Positions 2,252 through 18,030 of a stretch of DNA of 40,000 bases are shown here, piece after piece. Source of the stretch: an uncultured Chloroflexia bacterium (lineage in GTDB: Bacteria; Chloroflexota; Anaerolineae; Anaerolineales; UBA11858); the NCBI GenBank assembly GCA_963716695.1, contig CAVQTT010000024.1, forward strand, positions 311,562 to 351,561, written 5' to 3'. The notes under the pieces were generated by a model. It saw nothing but the letters and a program-made list of their open reading frames with translations, ran no database searches and had not been told where the DNA came from. Within the stretch, counting starts at the first letter, position 1, and each line of letters opens with the position of its first letter. A program made the position numbers and the translations under genes.

Positions 2252-3313
2252 TTACGGCAATGAAAATGGCCTCTCTGGCGAATAGATGCTATCAAAGAAA
2301 CCCATGTATGGGATATCCTCTTCAATGCACTTGATTTTGTAATTTAACCCGGCTTGAATTTCTTCACTTGGATCATCAAGATACTGCGCATAATGCAAGA
2401 ATTCTTCGATTTGGATTATTTTGATAAAAAGGGGTAATTTTGCTAACCATTCATCAGGCAACAAATTCTCGCGATTATATCCTGCCATTACTTGATCCAT
2501 GTAACGATCCATAAAGGATTTTCGGTCTTCCAGACTACGAAACATAACTCTGCCTATCCCGCCTTCCCAAGCAGATGCCAACTCATACACAAACCAGAAA
2601 TAACATGAGTTATCAAAATCAAAAACAGTTATTTCCCCATTAGTGTAGTCAACTGTGAAATTACCATCGTTGAAATCTCCATGAATTAGCCCAAATGAAT
2701 CTTTATCCTTTGGGAGAGACCTGAGTTCTTCTAGCGTGGATTGAATTCGTTGACCAACAACTTGCAACTGCTTCGGTAATCGGCCCAAAATAGCGAATCT
2801 ATTCTTGTGCAATTCAAACCACTCTGGTCGCCGAACTTGGTCGTTGGAGGGGCGATAGCTTTTGGTAACATAGTGCATTTGACCCAATATTTGCCCCCAG
2901 TTCTGAAAATATTCTTCAATTGGCGCATCTGTTCGGTAACGATACCCGTTATCCGGTACTCGCATTCCTTTTCCTTTGACAAAAGATGTAATACGAAATT
3001 CTATTCCTTTCACTTGAATTATTTCAACCTGATTCCCATTTCGAGAGGTTACTGGTTTGGATACTCGAACATCATGATCCGCCAAGTATTCCACAAAATC
3101 TAATTCGGCTCGAATTTGATCTGCGGTTCTATCGGGAGTAAATGACAATCTTAGAATGAAAGGCTTTCCGCTAATTCCATATTCGTAGACAAGGTTTGCA
3201 GCACCTTCATATTCTGCAAATACTTTCAAATTCTCCTGCCGAGTTTTAAAAAGCTTGGCCGATTTTTCAAGGACTTCACTTTTACAGATTTCAATTACTT
3301 TTTCTCTTTTCAT
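2252..3313 (-). CDS. Cassette 12: phosphotransferase-family kinase (APH / homoserine-kinase-II-like fold)
   Basis: 353 aa. The Brenner-type catalytic loop LIHGDFNDGNF and the Mg-binding VFDFDNS are diagnostic of the aminoglycoside-phosphotransferase/choline-kinase superfamily. Confidence 0.8.
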   Translation of the reverse strand: MKREKVIEICKSEVLEKSAKLFKTRQENLKVFAEYEGAANLVYEYGISGKPFILRLSFTPDRTADQIRAELDFVEYLADHDVRVSKPVTSRNGNQVEIIQVKGIEFRITSFVKGKGMRVPDNGYRYRTDAPIEEYFQNWGQILGQMHYVTKSYRPSNDQVRRPEWFELHKNRFAILGRLPKQLQVVGQRIQSTLEELRSLPKDKDSFGLIHGDFNDGNFTVDYTNGEITVFDFDNSCYFWFVYELASAWEGGIGRVMFRSLEDRKSFMDRYMDQVMAGYNRENLLPDEWLAKLPLFIKIIQIEEFLHYAQYLDDPSEEIQAGLNYKIKCIEEDIPYMGFFDSIYSPERPFSLP

Positions 3314-3351: not shown

Positions 3352-3517
3352 ACCCAACTTAGTAGCTCACCCGCCCGGTTTGCTAAAGAGCAAGTTGTAA
3401 AAAGTAAGCTGATTTGATTATTGCCTGCTGCTGTTATTCGTCGGGAAGTTAGGATACTTACTAATTACTAAACTTCTATTACTGTGCCGAAGGCACCGGG
3501 TCGGGTGGGGGTTAGGT
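3352..3517 (-). repeat. attC site (166 bp, longest in array) closing cassette 11
   Basis: acccaacttagtagctcacccgcccgg ... caccgggtcgggtgggggttaggt. The stop codon of ORF 3512-4051 lies in the R'' box. Confidence 0.75.
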
Positions 3518-4051
3518 ATTTTTAATAAGATTGTGTTTAATGTTATCGAATTCATCCAACTTGCCTTCCAGTTTTGACCATTCTTGAAGTTCAACAAGAT
3601 TTACCTTGTGTTTGGAGGCAACTAGAATAGCTTGTTTGAGACATTGGCGGTCACCCCAATGATAAAAGTGAGCAAGCCGATCTTTTACGCAATCTGTTGG
3701 AGAGATTATTCGTAATGTGCCCGTATCAAATTCCATCTCATTAATTTCTTTTACTTTTCCCCCGCCAAATTGAAGTGGTCCGGGTGGAAATTCGATAGTA
3801 TGATCCGTGGCAGGGTGTTGAAAATGACGACCAATCGGGGAAAAGCCTAACTCTTTCATTGCTTTTTCGATTTTATCTCGAATAGCAAAATGGGCATTTA
3901 CGAAATCAATATCACCTGATACATATTCTCCATTGGTATAAATCCCAACAGCTGCACCACCTGAAAGAACAACAAACAAACCTGAATCTTTGAGATGTTG
4001 ATCCACATATGCAGCTAGCTGAGCTTGACTCATTTTATCGATTGATTTCAT
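3512..4051 (-). CDS. Cassette 11: nucleotidyltransferase-fold protein of unknown function
   Basis: 179 aa. VVLSGGAAVGIYTNGEYVSGDIDFV resembles the G[GS]...DxD signature of pol-beta-type NTases. It overlaps the upstream wHTH ORF by 4 nt (ATGA). Confidence 0.6.
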   Translation of the reverse strand: MKSIDKMSQAQLAAYVDQHLKDSGLFVVLSGGAAVGIYTNGEYVSGDIDFVNAHFAIRDKIEKAMKELGFSPIGRHFQHPATDHTIEFPPGPLQFGGGKVKEINEMEFDTGTLRIISPTDCVKDRLAHFYHWGDRQCLKQAILVASKHKVNLVELQEWSKLEGKLDEFDNIKHNLIKNT

Positions 4052-4380
4052 TCGGGTTTGCCGTGACGACGTGGACGCCGTCTGTTCATAAGTAGTCTCT
4101 CTTGCAGATCTTCTGGGTAAAAGGAGATTGCCTTATTCAACAATGATTTTAATTCTTTCAATAAGGCATACCTGGGATTAAATCGATATAAAATTGTTCT
4201 ACCAACTTTTTTACTTACTATTACACCGCCCACCTCAAGTTTTTCTAATTGATCTTGAATTGGGAAGAGATCTGTTTCAAAAAACCGAGCAATTTCACGC
4301 GCATATCCCTCGTCTCGAGCCTGAAGAAAGATAAGTACTCGTTCACGATTAGACGATCCAACAATTGGTTCGAGCAACAT
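4048..4380 (-). CDS. Cassette 11: small winged-helix DNA-binding protein
   Basis: 110 aa. SNRERVLIFLQARDEGYAREIARFFETDLFPIQDQLEKLEVGGVIVSKKVGRTILYRFN shows an ArsR/MarR-like wHTH pattern, followed by the basic tail NRRRPRRHGKPE. Confidence 0.6.
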   Translation of the reverse strand: MLLEPIVGSSNRERVLIFLQARDEGYAREIARFFETDLFPIQDQLEKLEVGGVIVSKKVGRTILYRFNPRYALLKELKSLLNKAISFYPEDLQERLLMNRRRPRRHGKPE

Positions 4381-4489
4381 TAAAACAACGTCCTTTCCGA
4401 CCTATAAAATAAGTCATATGACCTATTATATGGTCCGTATGACTTATTTTATACATCAAAGAACTTATGTTGTCAATACTATGAATAAT

Positions 4490-4603
4490 ACCTAACGGAT
4501 GAGCTCACCCACAGTCGGCTTTTTTATACCGGTCTTCCGTCCCCGGTCTCTTTTTCCCGGTCGTTCGCGAAGCGAACAATACCAGCTGTCGGGTGGCTTA
4601 ATT
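4490..4603 (-). repeat. attC site (114 bp) closing cassette 10; degenerate R'' (CTTAATT)
   Basis: acctaacggatgagctcacccacagtcgg ... accagctgtcgggtggcttaatt. Confidence 0.65.
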
Positions 4604-5861: not shown

Positions 5862-5960
5862 TCCTAACGTAAAAGCTCACCCGCAGCCGGATCCTTTTTT
5901 CGATCTTCCGTCCTCCGTCCCCGGTCCGCCGTAGACGCTCAGGTGGAGCTTGGGTTAGGC
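5862..5960 (-). repeat. attC site (99 bp) closing cassette 9
   Basis: tcctaacgtaaaagctcacccgcagccgg ... gctcaggtggagcttgggttaggc. Its central ~62 nt are nearly identical to the attC at 10155-10270. Confidence 0.85.
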
Positions 5961-7233: not shown

Positions 7234-8166
7234 TCAAGTAGAGTAATCAGCCCTATTCCGGGCCTCAATATCCGTGAAATCCCCCCAGGGTTTAACTTCC
7301 GGCATTTGCAAACGTTTGGTTACGAGTCCAAGGATCGGAATCATCAACAGATGGAGGATTAAGAACATTAGAACAAAGGGCATGAATTCAAGGCCAGATT
7401 GAAGACCTTCTCTAGTCTCAATAAACAGGACATTAAAAATGCTGTTATTGATGAAGTGGGCTACAAAGGCTCCCCAGAGATTGTTGGTCTTGTAGTAGAA
7501 GTAGCCATATACAACACCGGAGATAATTGTCGATAGCAGAAGGCCAAACGCTTCAAATGCCACATCCCCAACAGCCTGACCATCCAGTAAATGCCTTAAT
7601 GGCCAGCTAAGATGCCAGAGAGAGAATAGAAACGCTTGAAGGAAAATCGCTCCCCACCTGGAATATCGGACCAAGAAATGGCGCAGCATGACCCCTCTGA
7701 ATAGACCTTCCTCCATTCCCGAATTAAAGAGATTGGAAAAAACAAGCCAAAGCCCAAATAGCAAACCGCCGGATAAGCCTGTTTTGGGATCTATTGCAGA
7801 AAAAACCAGGGCGGCTTTTTCCCCGGAGAATTTCAGAATAGCCAACTGGCTTGTATAGGCGATCACATAGATCAAGCCAAATCCCCCAATGGCAATTAAT
7901 AAGGTGATGCCTATCTTCCTGGAATGAAAACCAATATCACCAATTTTTCTTTTCACCAGCCAGAGATAGAGGAGAATTAATAGAAAACCCAGCGCTTTGG
8001 TGAGGATGGCTTCGCCGATCAACTCATCCAGCCTGAAAACAAAAGTGTCAACTATTTTGATGATCCAGGCCATGATGTAGAGGCTGAGCATGATCAGCAA
8101 GGGCTGCTCGGTCGATTTTTTTAAGAGTGTATTTTGTTTACTGAAGTCGTTCTGGAAGTCAGACAT
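7234..8166 (-). CDS. Cassette 8: CPBP (CAAX protease / bacteriocin-processing, Abi) family intramembrane glutamic endopeptidase
   Basis: Motifs EEGLFRGVMLRHF, FSLWHLSWP and VAHFINNS. The start is moved to ATG 8166 (MSDFQ...), which follows a strong AGGAGGG Shine-Dalgarno. The track start 8208 falls in the attC. Confidence 0.85.
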   Translation of the reverse strand: MSDFQNDFSKQNTLLKKSTEQPLLIMLSLYIMAWIIKIVDTFVFRLDELIGEAILTKALGFLLILLYLWLVKRKIGDIGFHSRKIGITLLIAIGGFGLIYVIAYTSQLAILKFSGEKAALVFSAIDPKTGLSGGLLFGLWLVFSNLFNSGMEEGLFRGVMLRHFLVRYSRWGAIFLQAFLFSLWHLSWPLRHLLDGQAVGDVAFEAFGLLLSTIISGVVYGYFYYKTNNLWGAFVAHFINNSIFNVLFIETREGLQSGLEFMPFVLMFLILHLLMIPILGLVTKRLQMPEVKPWGDFTDIEARNRADYST

Positions 8167-8207
8167 ATCAGGCCCTCCTATAATATATTTCCAGATTATT
8201 ATATTCA

Positions 8208-8331
8208 ACCTAACGGGGGCTTCAGGCGCTGGGGGTGCTAGTCAACCACCCAGCTTCCGAAAGCTCCAACCTTTGCCCTATTCCCATTTTTCGCCCCGCG
8301 GACCCCCAGTCGCCTGCAAGCGGGGTTATGC
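8208..8331 (-). repeat. attC site (124 bp) closing cassette 7; R'' GTTATGC
   Basis: acctaacgggggcttcaggcgctggggg ... cccccagtcgcctgcaagcggggttatgc. Confidence 0.7.
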
Positions 8332-10154: not shown

Positions 10155-10270
10155 GCATAACGGATTAAGCTCACCCGCAGCCGGATCCTTTTTTCGGTCT
10201 TCCGTCCTCCGTCCCCGGTCCGCCGCAGGCGCTCATCCTGAACGAAGCCGAAGGAGAGCGGGGGTTAGTT
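10155..10270 (-). repeat. attC site (116 bp) closing cassette 6; boxes GCATAAC / GTTAGTT
   Basis: gcataacggattaagctcacccgcagccgg ... gaaggagagcgggggttagtt. The mazF stop codon lies in the R'' box. Confidence 0.8.
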
Positions 10271-10603
10271 TGAGATAATCTCGTTTAACCCTTCCACAAT
10301 GATTTCCAATTCTTCGGAGTCAACCTGGCCAACCTTATTGTCAAGACGCGAGGTGGATATTGTCCTTACTTGGCTGATCTTGACCCACGACTTTTTTTGT
10401 AGATCCCCGCTTTTCAGTTCATGGGTTAAAGGAAAACCAGCTCTGGGCGGCTGGCTTGAAATAGCCATGGCGATAACTGTGCCAGACTTATTATTGAAAA
10501 CATCATGACTGATAATCACAACTGGCCGAACACCAGCTTGTTCATGGCCTTTTGTAGGATTCAGATCAGCCCAGTAGATGTCCCCTCTTAATATTCTGGC
10601 CAT
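10265..10603 (-). CDS. mazF: Cassette 6: MazF/PemK-family endoribonuclease toxin
   Basis: 112 aa. RGDIYWADLNPTKGHEQAGVRPVVIIS is the canonical PemK/MazF N-terminal motif. It overlaps the upstream antitoxin by 16 nt. Confidence 0.88.
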   Translation of the reverse strand: MARILRGDIYWADLNPTKGHEQAGVRPVVIISHDVFNNKSGTVIAMAISSQPPRAGFPLTHELKSGDLQKKSWVKISQVRTISTSRLDNKVGQVDSEELEIIVEGLNEIISN

Positions 10604-10839
10604 TCAGATAAATCTCCTAAGAGACCTTCATCTGCCAGAGCTTGTTCATAAGCAGGATCAAGTTTTGCAGATTCCTCAGCTAATCTTGACTTTTCCACTT
10701 TGACCATGCGTTCAATAACAGCGTCTTCAACTGCTCTGCTCCGGCTGGGATATTTTCCTTCGGAAACCATGCGATCCAATTTCACTATAAGATCCTTTTC
10801 CATTGTGACCGCTACTTTTTGCTTTGGCATGTTTATCAC
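10588..10839 (-). CDS. mazE: Cassette 6: ribbon-helix-helix (CopG-like) antitoxin
   Basis: 83 aa. KVAVTMEKDLIVKLDRMVSEGKYPSRSRAVEDAV shows an RHH pattern, with the acidic C-terminal tail typical of antitoxins. The start may be M5 (10827). Confidence 0.75.
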   Translation of the reverse strand: MINMPKQKVAVTMEKDLIVKLDRMVSEGKYPSRSRAVEDAVIERMVKVEKSRLAEESAKLDPAYEQALADEGLLGDLSEWPEY

Positions 10840-10986: not shown

Positions 10987-11796
10987 TTATTTACTCCAAA
11001 AAAGATAAAACAAGATTGCCTGTGGGCCATAATTCATGATGCCATGCAATATAGCAGGTGCAATTATGCTTTCACTTTTTTCACGCACAAACCCTAAGAT
11101 CAGCCCAGCAAACATGGTCCAGAGAACATGCGGCCATTCTGGCGCACCAGATTTCCAGCCTAAATGCCAAAGACCAAAAAGCACAGATGAGATAACCAAT
11201 CCTAATCCCCAACTAACCCCAAAGAATCGATTGGGGCGATCAAATACTGAATTCAGGCGAGACTGGATATATCCGCGAAATAGAATCTCTTCACTTAAGG
11301 CAACAAACAAGTAGAAATAGATGATAGCAACAATGGCGCTCGCAAACTTAGACGAGATTTGAGATCCAACTGGAAAGAGCAAAAAGCTGCTTATGACTCC
11401 AATATTCTGCCATGATGGTTTGTGTCTAACCATCCATGCAAACCAGAAAAGCAATCCAATTTCGACGATGGAGATCAGAGTTGCTCCAACCCAATGGGTC
11501 CAATCAATCCTACTGAGAAGAACACCAAGAACGAAAAATGGGAAGAAGCCATAAGCGGTTATATCTAATTGATAGTGGAGTTTCTGGGAAAAAGGGCTCT
11601 GGTGCTGCCTCTGAGTCCTGAAAATGTAAAGGCAGAAGGAAGTAATCAATAGAGCTGCATATCCTGGAAAAAGAAAACCGTTAATGGAGTTGGTTATCTT
11701 CATTGCCAGCGGAATTGAATTGACAAACCTGAAAAGGCAAATCATCACGATGAAGACAATGCTGACTTCAATTATGATTAGTATTTTTGCCTTCAT
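10987..11796 (-). CDS. Cassette 5: second CPBP/Abi-family intramembrane endopeptidase
   Basis: Motifs EEILFRGYIQSRL, FGLWHLGW and PAILHGIMN. ATG 11796 (MKAKILII...) is preferred over the upstream TTG at 11835. Confidence 0.82.
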   Translation of the reverse strand: MKAKILIIIEVSIVFIVMICLFRFVNSIPLAMKITNSINGFLFPGYAALLITSFCLYIFRTQRQHQSPFSQKLHYQLDITAYGFFPFFVLGVLLSRIDWTHWVGATLISIVEIGLLFWFAWMVRHKPSWQNIGVISSFLLFPVGSQISSKFASAIVAIIYFYLFVALSEEILFRGYIQSRLNSVFDRPNRFFGVSWGLGLVISSVLFGLWHLGWKSGAPEWPHVLWTMFAGLILGFVREKSESIIAPAILHGIMNYGPQAILFYLFWSK

Positions 11797-11845
11797 ACCG
11801 GCAACCTTTTCAACATTGAGAAGTTTGATTATCAAAACACCATGC

Positions 11846-17052: not shown

Positions 17053-18030
17053 ATGAATGAACCGAAACTTTTGGATCAGGTCAGATCTGTGATCAGGCGC
17101 TTGAATTATTCCTACGCCACTGAAAAAGCCTATACTTCTTGGATCAAACGTTTTATCCTTTTCCACGACAAACGCCATCCCCGCCAAATGGGCGAGGTCG
17201 AGATCGAATCCTTCTTAACCTACCTGGCTGTACATCGGCAGGTAGCCCCCTCGACCCAGAACCAGGCTTTGGCTGCCCTGCAGTTCCTGTATCAGAAGGT
17301 GCTCCATCTTCCATTGGACGAGGGGATCCTGCCAGTGCCGGCCAAACGGTCCAAACATCTGCCTGTGGTGCTCAGTAGATCAGAAGTCAAGTTGGTGCTG
17401 GGCCAGCTTTCGGGAACCTACCGCCTGGTCTGCCAGCTGCTCTACGGCTGCGGACTGCGGGTGACAGAATGCCTCACCCTGCGGATCCAGGACCTGGATC
17501 TGGATCGCTCCGAGATCACCGTTCGCAGCGGCAAGGGCAACAAGGATCGCCGGACGATGCTTCCCGGAACCGTTCAGGATGCCCTGGTTCGTCATCTTGA
17601 ATATGTAAAGGCAGCCCATGAGAAAGCCTTGGCTGAGGGGTACGGGGGCGTGGAGCTGCCGTACGGTTTGGCCCGGAAATACACCGCTGCTGCTGGTGAA
17701 TGGATCTGGCAGTATGTCTTCCCTGCCCACCTGCCTTCCCATGACCCTCGCTCCGGGGTCTTCCGTCGGCATCATCTTCACCCCAGCGGCCTGCGCCGTG
17801 CTGTTCGCTCGGCTGCCCAGAAAGCCGGGATCCAAAAACATGTCACACCGCATATCTTCCGCCACAGCTTTGCCACCCACTTGCTGGAAAGCGGCTATGA
17901 CATCCGCACTGTCCAGGAGCTATTGGGGCATGCCGATCTCAAAACCACCATGATCTACACCCACGTGCTCAACAAAGGCGGCCAAGGCGTGAAAAGCCCG
18001 CTGGATGAGCTTCGGGATAGCAGTATCTGA
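17053..18030 (+). CDS. intI: Integron integrase IntI (tyrosine recombinase)
   Basis: 325 aa. The catalytic residues sit in [10 protein letters not shown] (Arg), [12 protein letters not shown] (His-x-x-Arg), LLGH and MIYTHV (Tyr). The IntI-specific insertion reads [25 protein letters not shown], matching the ALxRKYPxAxxxWxWQWVFP-type additional domain absent from XerC/D. Confidence 0.95.

Follow-up and report, generated by a model that had tools for sequence, protein, structure and literature searches.

A mobile two-gene module of a predicted winged-helix repressor and a minimal nucleotidyltransferase, carried as an integron cassette in an uncultured Chloroflexia bacterium, as a candidate toxin-antitoxin-like family

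The AbiE abortive-infection system is a two-gene operon in which a winged-helix DNA-binding protein is encoded first and a pol-beta-fold nucleotidyltransferase second, in overlapping frames; inverted-repeat operators lie in its own promoter, and it is found on mobile elements. AbiEi and MenA4 are both described as combining a winged helix-turn-helix (wHTH) at the N terminus with a C-terminal kinase domain, and the toxin MenT1 has the residues T39/D41/D43, K137 and D152 and an electropositive tRNA cavity (PMC10435456). PDC-M05 is a candidate system of a nucleotidyltransferase and a HEPN protein (PMC12988326). Here we examine a two-gene cassette in a 40,000-nt stretch of DNA from an uncultured Chloroflexia bacterium (assembly GCA_963716695.1, contig CAVQTT010000024.1, positions 311,562 to 351,561; this whole stretch is called the window), which a sequence-only reading had singled out as a candidate uncharacterised toxin-antitoxin (TA) or defence module. 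The pair of genes is like AbiE and MenAT in organisation, yet lies outside AbiEii/DUF1814, AbiEi, MNT-HEPN/PDC-M05, ANT(2'')/Lnu and DUF2204. It belongs to a large family of self-contained, horizontally mobile two-gene modules that carries no functional annotation. A mobile, autoregulated bicistron with a predicted DNA-binding repressor, an intact nucleotidyltransferase centre and a fixed stoichiometry is shown or strongly supported by the comparisons and models below. As to function, our preferred but tentative reading, drawn by analogy, is that these may be a new family of autoregulated nucleotidyltransferase TA or abortive-infection-like modules with AbiE/MenAT logic.

Both open reading frames (ORFs) are present on the minus strand as the sequence-only reading described them: a 110-aa wHTH protein (4048..4380) followed by a 179-aa nucleotidyltransferase-like protein (3512..4051), joined by an ATGA overlap at 4048-4051. 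The parallel with AbiE that it drew stands for gene order and overlap and, through the inverted repeats in the promoter of a bicistron with the DNA binder first, for a predicted autoregulation; it fails for membership in AbiEii/DUF1814 and AbiEi. As it had also remarked, the enzyme is much shorter than AbiEii (179 aa against ~280-300 aa) and the cassette has no HEPN ORF. The window enzyme matches neither PF08843 nor the PADLOC AbiEii model, and a single one of 59 diverse family members reaches the AbiEii model, at E 0.059. The DNA binder, at 110 aa with an arginine-rich tail, differs from AbiEi (COG5340), which spans ~200-300 aa and ends in a C-terminal neutralising domain, and it has no AbiEi profile match in Pfam or PADLOC.

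Scanning one genome per species, we found relatives in at least 579 species genomes, and the best 80 of these loci (L001-L080) provide our statistics on pairing, overlap, neighbours and operators. The wHTH gene lies immediately upstream of the enzyme gene, on the same strand, in 80/80 homologous loci, so the pairing implied by the two-gene cassette extends to its homologs. A 4-nt overlap of the form [A/G/T]TGA joins the two genes in 78 of 81 loci, window included, and the wHTH-enzyme architecture holds down to 30% nucleotidyltransferase identity. The 80 loci span more than 10 phyla, with Chloroflexota in the majority, alongside Desulfuromonadota, Spirochaetota, Eisenbacteria, Lentisphaerota, Verrucomicrobiota, Gemmatimonadota, Acidobacteriota, Latescibacteria and others, and include loci from Desulfuromusa and Geobacter. 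No conserved third gene occurs within 4 kb on either side in the 80 loci, where the recurrent neighbours are common ABC ATPases (10 loci) and a response-regulator-like family (6 loci). Apparent wHTH-enzyme fusions of 237-607 aa were considered and rejected, as they appear to be high-GC ORFs that were called wrongly.

Purifying selection acts on both genes: the ratio of nonsynonymous to synonymous substitution (dN/dS) is 0.03-0.05 in the wHTH gene and 0.08-0.24 in that of the enzyme. These low ratios, together with more than 1000 homologous clusters for each protein, place both genes far beyond chance. Distances between enzymes and between repressors are moderately correlated (r 0.58). The metagenome-assembled genome (MAG) of Desulfuromusa that holds L001 carries the closest enzyme (84%) with a more distant wHTH protein (76%) and a different, TGGTATA-type upstream repeat, a mismatch suggesting that repressor-operator units and enzyme genes are occasionally shuffled or recombined. 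The upstream neighbour at L001 is a reverse transcriptase.

The 110-aa protein is predicted to be an ArsR/SmtB/MarR-like winged-helix repressor. Its AlphaFold2 (AF2) model (predicted local distance difference test, pLDDT, 86.6) consists of a winged helix followed on the C-terminal side by two further helices and by a final decapeptide that is disordered, with a pLDDT of 53 in the last block. The fold matches SqrR, SmtB and CzrA with template-modelling (TM) scores of 0.55-0.63, while sequence models match only weakly (NCBIfam HTH_metalloreg, 20.7 bits against a cut-off of 55). The protein is basic, with an isoelectric point (pI) of 9.9, and ends in ...NRRRPRRHGKPE. The highly basic tail that had caught attention in the sequence alone, NRRRPRRHGKP at residues 99-109 (4054..4086, minus strand), is predicted to be disordered and proves to be nearly invariant: from N99 onward the columns hardly change across the family, giving the consensus RRRPRRxGKP. 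The tail is kept as RRRPRRAGKP in the subfamily whose enzyme is at 30% identity and takes the form RRRPREKGKP in Leptospira; it contains no Ser, Thr or Tyr acceptor.

A sigma-70-like promoter can be read inside the cassette (4448..4476, minus strand), with a -35 box TTGACA at 4471-4476, a 17-nt spacer and a -10 box TATAAA at 4448-4453. TTGACA recurs at the same position in L002-L008. A consensus scanner missed this promoter because its -10 pattern must end in T, and the box here ends in A. The operator region (4397..4453, minus strand) comprises AGGTCATATGAC-type palindromes downstream of the -10 box, namely O1 GGTCCGTATGACTT at 4432-4445 and O2 AAGTCATATGACCT at 4411-4424, and an O3 half-site GACCTAT at 4397-4403; a perfect 16-nt inverted repeat runs at 4403-4418 and 4438-4453. 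Homologous loci carry two to three palindromes with centres 21 bp apart. Perfect 12-nt palindromes are present in 28/79 upstream regions, compared with 3.7% of shuffles (~10-fold enrichment), and 26 of these 28 fall into four recurring cores, GGTCATATGACC, TGACATATGTCA, GGTTATATAACC and GGTGATATCACC. The best predictors of operator class are wHTH residues 38-40, where the recognition helix begins, together with residue 28, which places the likely specificity determinants where a winged helix reads DNA; P38-D39-S40 goes with the CTGACA operator class in 15-16 of 16 loci, an association that shared ancestry could inflate. Autorepression of the module by its winged-helix protein is thus well supported as a prediction from comparative sequence evidence.

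We interpret the 179-aa protein as a minimal pol-beta-type nucleotidyltransferase with a C-terminal four-helix lobe, on the basis of its ORF, AF2 model, Foldseek matches and conserved columns. Residues 29-51 hold LSGGAAVGIYTNGEYVSGDIDFV, the stretch in which a pol-beta nucleotidyltransferase signature had been recognised by eye, and the model built with 44 homologs bears that recognition out with confidence (pLDDT 92.4; predicted TM-score 0.87), showing two lobes in which an alpha-beta-alpha-beta pol-beta nucleotidyltransferase core precedes the four-helix lobe. Conserved columns are G31, G32, S45, D47, D49, E87, K123, D124, R125, D134 and E162, with D49, D124 and R125 invariant even in the most diverse enzyme set. 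Foldseek comparison of the model with the PDB returned ANT(2'')-Ia (E 8.6e-5), the fungal nucleotidyltransferase-like protein 5uvd (TM 0.64, E 9.6e-5), LnuA (E 3.6e-4), the AbiEi antitoxin 6y8q (TM 0.46-0.49, E 5.7e-4) and the MenT1 toxin 8an5 (TM 0.56, E 1.2e-3), followed by MenT3, TM1012 and JHP933; the TM-score to AbiEi is below those to 5uvd, LnuA and MenT1. A viral fold library gave generic nucleotidyltransferase matches only.

Sequence searches place the enzyme in no described family. The 179-aa protein reaches no above-threshold model in Pfam, NCBIfam or PADLOC, and sequence searches of the PDB gave no match. Among the 59 diverse members, all Pfam matches are sub-threshold: DUF2204 in 32, NTP_transf_5 in 7, Aminoglyc_resit in 3, DUF6036 in 3 and AbiEii in the one mentioned above. 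DUF2204 (PF09970) is the closest sequence family, with a best E of 7.1e-5 among those 32; the Pfam gathering threshold is not reached, and the window enzyme itself has no match to it at E<=1. As DUF2204 has no known function, this link adds no mechanism. Homologs of the enzyme fill more than 1000 clusters at 90% identity, all named 'hypothetical'; a profile search collects 2215 clusters at 50% identity (E<=1e-3), and a subfamily of ~30% identity adds more than 1500 further clusters. The PHROGs family of the enzyme, phrog_13263, is of unknown function. The literature on DUF2204 and on TA pairs of a wHTH/ArsR protein with a nucleotidyltransferase yielded no description of the pair, so that 'uncharacterised' was an apt word for a module without Pfam, NCBIfam or PADLOC assignment and with PHROGs families of unknown function. 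We thus regard the 179-aa protein as an active-looking nucleotidyltransferase whose family, still without annotation, lies at the edge of the nucleotidyltransferase clan.

MenT1 resembles the modelled enzyme in its bilobed build, a beta-sheet nucleotidyltransferase lobe with a four-helix bundle, in its length of ~190 aa and in a TM-score of ~0.56. From the conserved columns, S45-x-D47-x-D49, K123 and D134 of the enzyme would parallel T39/D41/D43, K137 and D152 of MenT1. MenAT1 and MenAT3 nevertheless differ from the pair, since the enzyme has no DUF1814 signal, MenA1 is without a DNA-binding domain and the antitoxin MenA3 is of the kinase type. MNT-HEPN modules (MntA/HepT; PDC-M05) likewise place a minimal nucleotidyltransferase in a two-gene mobile module, but the cassette holds no HEPN partner, neither NTP_transf_2 nor any PDC-M05 profile fits the enzyme, and the partner is a predicted DNA-binding protein. 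The wHTH protein does match PADLOC PDC-M05A (E 1.4e-10), in a region confined to the generic, N-terminal wHTH part of the model. Because only this part matches and a HEPN partner is lacking, the pair is not PDC-M05.

ANT(2'')-Ia (AadB) and LnuA, the best structural matches, share with the enzyme a similar length, an acidic character (median pI 5.6 in the enzyme family) and a location on mobile elements. The gene aadB is known as an integron cassette gene. Both differ from the pair in being encoded by single genes with no obligate repressor, and their C-terminal lobe is unrelated in sequence. An hhalign comparison of the enzyme profile with ANT(2'')-Ia (identical in sequence to 4WQK) sets GG and DxD in register over the first 60 columns only, with a probability of 1.3%. 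Membership in ANT(2'')/Lnu (full-length PF10706) was considered and rejected, given Aminoglyc_resit matches in 3/59 members at E 0.014 or weaker, the 60 aligned columns and no PDB sequence match.

The integron setting is incidental to the family. Integron cassettes account for the window and its closest Chloroflexota relatives only (L002, L004, L005, L006), and most pairs are chromosomal or plasmid-borne. A strict attC pattern lies downstream of the pair in the window alone; inspection reveals degenerate R' boxes in four close homologs, and GTTAGG stands ~113 nt upstream, as in the window, in L002, L003, L005 and L017. Plasmids carry the pair in 38 cases, 35 of them in Leptospira and the others in Bdellovibrio, Sulfurospirillum and Sulfurimonas. 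On pLiSL32 of L. interrogans it adjoins parB, and on a Sulfurimonas paralvinellae plasmid (L082, 2103-4552) it lies directly downstream of reverse-transcriptase-like, gamma-glutamylcyclotransferase-family and DUF2130 genes, a neighbourhood that may be a defence-type cluster. The profiles of phrog_13263 and phrog_18520 give near-perfect fits to the copies on Leptospira plasmids (431 and 258 bits); that both proteins correspond to phage-protein families of unknown function matching these copies implies carriage on Leptospira phage-plasmids. At least one MAG holds two paralogs (P0040, P0101). Immediate neighbours across the 80 loci are mixed and include a few integrases, transposases and AbiEi/AbiEii pairs, one MNT, PDC-S01 and mad genes. 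AbiEii adjoins the pair in 3/80 loci, and AbiEi matches among immediate neighbours number 2 members against 3 for AbiEii.

Taken as a TA or abortive-infection module, the pair could work as follows. A dimeric ArsR/MarR-type winged-helix product would bind two to three palindromic operators (consensus AGGTCATATGACCT, spacing 21 bp), as the comparative evidence suggests; because these overlap both the -10 box and the transcription start of the promoter that drives the module, binding would repress the operon. Through the ATGA overlap, the enzyme would be made in fixed proportion to the repressor. In the model, the GG turn together with S-x-D-x-D and E87 would form the site that holds Mg-NTP, with the conserved K123/D124/R125/D134 presented on the helical lobe. 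The enzyme may then act as a growth-arresting effector that nucleotidylates a cellular target such as tRNA 3' ends, and the repressor as its neutraliser, possibly by inserting the disordered RRRPRRxGKP tail into the acidic catalytic cleft. A basic, disordered tail on a protein of pI 9.9 and an acidic cleft in an enzyme of pI 5.6 make such a plug plausible. Loss of the repressor, whether by plasmid or cassette loss or by transcription shut-off in infection, would free the enzyme, and the freed enzyme would stabilise the integron array or plasmid, or abort the infection. Consistent with this TA reading, the nearest folds include the tRNA-nucleotidylating toxins MenT1 and MenT3 as well as AbiEi, the mobility is typical of TA modules (a cassette with its own promoter in an array with VapBC and MazEF; plasmids), and the pair occasionally adjoins AbiE and MNT modules. 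The constant pairing with no conserved third gene, the predicted autoregulation, the opposite charges of the two proteins, the parB neighbour on pLiSL32 and the MAG with two paralogs also fit this reading.

Several observations weigh against a TA function. The enzyme is acidic, whereas the tRNA cavity of MenT1 is electropositive; antibiotic nucleotidyltransferases head its structural matches, and no AbiEii/DUF1814 model fits it. In 97.6% of locus pairs the wHTH protein is the better conserved of the two (mean identity 66%, against 56% for the enzyme), and a slower repressor runs counter to what antitoxin/toxin or regulator/enzyme pairs usually show. On Leptospira noguchii plasmid p3_LIP1512017 (L081, 3650-3980) the wHTH gene is frameshifted beside an intact, annotated enzyme gene, with the tail ...STRRRPREKGKPVY readable in another frame; the pair is intact on other Leptospira plasmids (L089, L090). 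The tail is reminiscent of an AT-hook or of an arginine-rich motif that binds nucleic acids, and it may serve DNA binding rather than neutralisation: it could equally be an AT-hook-like DNA arm contacting AT-rich spacers between operators. Enrichment of defence genes among 146 immediate neighbours is weak and heterogeneous, and the family has no match in 50,697 phage records and is found in only 2 of 2.9 million viral contigs. The acidic enzyme, drug-modifier folds, slow-evolving 'antitoxin', frameshifted L. noguchii repressor and AT-hook-like tail are why we advance the TA reading only with reserve.

Alternatively, the enzyme might act on small molecules in the manner of ANT(2'')-Ia and LnuA, inactivating some cationic antibiotic, xenobiotic or metabolite by nucleotidyl transfer, with the wHTH protein as its dedicated repressor. 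We keep this unlikely role under consideration because aminoglycoside modifiers are typically acidic, as this enzyme is, and because its best Foldseek matches are antibiotic nucleotidyltransferases (E 8.6e-5 and 3.6e-4), both of ~160-180 aa and on mobile elements. The GG and DxD register with ANT(2'')-Ia, the weak Aminoglyc_resit matches in three members and the APH-family kinase and GNAT in neighbouring cassettes point the same way. The hhalign result, however, covers the generic N-terminal core only and brings no sequence membership, the repressor model is without a ligand-binding domain, and the family has its centre in uncultured anaerobic Chloroflexota, not in taxa exposed to antibiotics. 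Resistance cassettes are normally single promoterless genes, whereas this pair, across more than 10 phyla, is strictly coupled in translation and combines its own promoter with an invariant tail on the repressor.

A regulatory role for the enzyme, which we regard as somewhat less probable again, would have it bind or modify the wHTH protein as a co-repressor or sensor, or would reverse the parts so that a harmful basic wHTH protein is neutralised by the acidic enzyme, following type VII MntA-HepT logic. In MNT-HEPN systems the nucleotidyltransferase is the antitoxin and modifies its partner. The stronger constraint on the repressor (dN/dS 0.03-0.05; 97.6% of pairs), the complementary charges, the invariant tail and the one plasmid on which the repressor gene is frameshifted but the enzyme gene intact would all suit such a role. 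Yet the tail offers no Ser, Thr or Tyr to modify, a 110-aa autorepressor is an unlikely toxin, and we know of no such switch for the nucleotidyltransferase fold of this enzyme. The order of DNA binder first and enzyme second is moreover the antitoxin-toxin order of AbiE (PMC10435456).

That the pair is a split AbiEi/MenA-type antitoxin, a winged helix and a nucleotidyltransferase-like 'kinase' domain acting in trans on AbiEii/MenT toxins encoded elsewhere, is very improbable: the Foldseek match to AbiEi 6y8q (E 5.7e-4), the wHTH-plus-kinase composition of AbiEi and MenA4 (PMC10435456) and the AbiEii neighbours in 3/80 loci speak for it, but no AbiEi profile (PADLOC, Pfam) matches either protein, the TM-score to AbiEi of 0.46-0.49 falls below those to 5uvd, LnuA and MenT1, 77/80 loci are without an immediate AbiEii neighbour and AbiEi matches occur alongside AbiEii ones, and no genuine fused forms were found.

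One might go further and speculate that the RRRPRRxGKP tail is the core of an undescribed mechanism, a doubtful but specific proposal. As a pseudo-substrate or arginine-finger peptide it could plug or switch the acidic active site, reciprocally coupling activity and operator occupancy in an enzyme-sensor repressor switch, or, as an arginine-rich arm, it could recruit nucleic acid for tagging; either would amount to a new conflict or addiction class distinct from AbiE, MenAT and MNT-HEPN. The invariant arginine-rich tail and the covariation between operator and recognition helix are directly testable handles.

If the module is a TA or abortive-infection system, it would add a large family (at least 579 species genomes, thousands of protein clusters) to the nucleotidyltransferase toxin systems, supply a model absent from current defence and TA finders, and help explain how sedentary integron arrays are stabilised in uncultured Chloroflexota. 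If it is instead a regulated small-molecule nucleotidyltransferase, it would represent a new environmental reservoir of drug-modifying enzymes that are already packaged as integron cassettes. The family, found on plasmids of Leptospira, Campylobacterota and Bdellovibrio and in Chloroflexota integrons, has many members, no annotation and sharp limits; one more TA-like family of nucleotidyltransferases would, however, leave current understanding in place.

The cassette itself sits in a genuine integron array, with attC cores of the RYYYAAC ... GTTRRRY type and an intI gene. Its attC (3352..3516, minus strand) has an R'' box ACCTAAC at 3510-3516, which includes the TAA stop of the 179-aa gene, and an R' box GTTGGGT at 3352-3358 that closes the cassette, and the ends GCTCACCCGCCCGG / CCGGGTCGGGTG pair as expected in the DNA fold; CCTAAC...GTTAGG repeat families recur in the array. 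The R' core GTTAGGT of the preceding attC (4490-4496, minus strand) forms the 5' boundary. Read on the minus strand, these two core sites set the cassette limits at 3358-4495, so that the cassette reported at 3359-4496 is real and its limits shift by one base. The integron integrase (17053-18030, plus strand) is divergent from the array and scores 443.6 bits against TIGR02249 (cut-off 265). The minus-strand array runs from ~1 to ~16.5 kb with at least a dozen cassettes, at a G+C content of ~0.38-0.48, compared with ~0.47-0.57 in the flanking chromosome beyond ~17 kb. Rfam has no match in the window.

Two bona fide TA cassettes lie in the same array, as the sequence-only reading had recognised, both on the minus strand: a VapBC-type cassette at 828-1402, with an AbrB-type VapB (68 aa) and a PIN toxin sharing an ATGA overlap, and a MazEF-type cassette at 10265-10839, with an RHH MazE-like protein (83 aa) and a MazF/PemK toxin overlapping by 16 nt. 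The other cassettes encode a GNAT, an APH-family kinase, an acyltransferase, two CAAX proteases and an alpha/beta hydrolase. Directly downstream of the pair are the GNAT and the APH-family phosphotransferase cassettes (1549-2076 and 2252-3313, minus strand), both with resistance-enzyme-like folds; the GNAT belongs to Acetyltransf_3 and is weakly similar to bleomycin-family N-acetyltransferases. The Rce1-like CAAX protease-family membrane proteins occupy two different cassettes (7234-8208 and 10987-11835, minus strand), and this family is frequently linked to bacteriocin immunity. Two attC-internal 69-nt segments, at 5873-5941 and 10167-10235, are 96% identical, with a looser third copy at 717-785; nearly the same attC on unrelated cassettes suggests recent duplication or a host-typical attC type.

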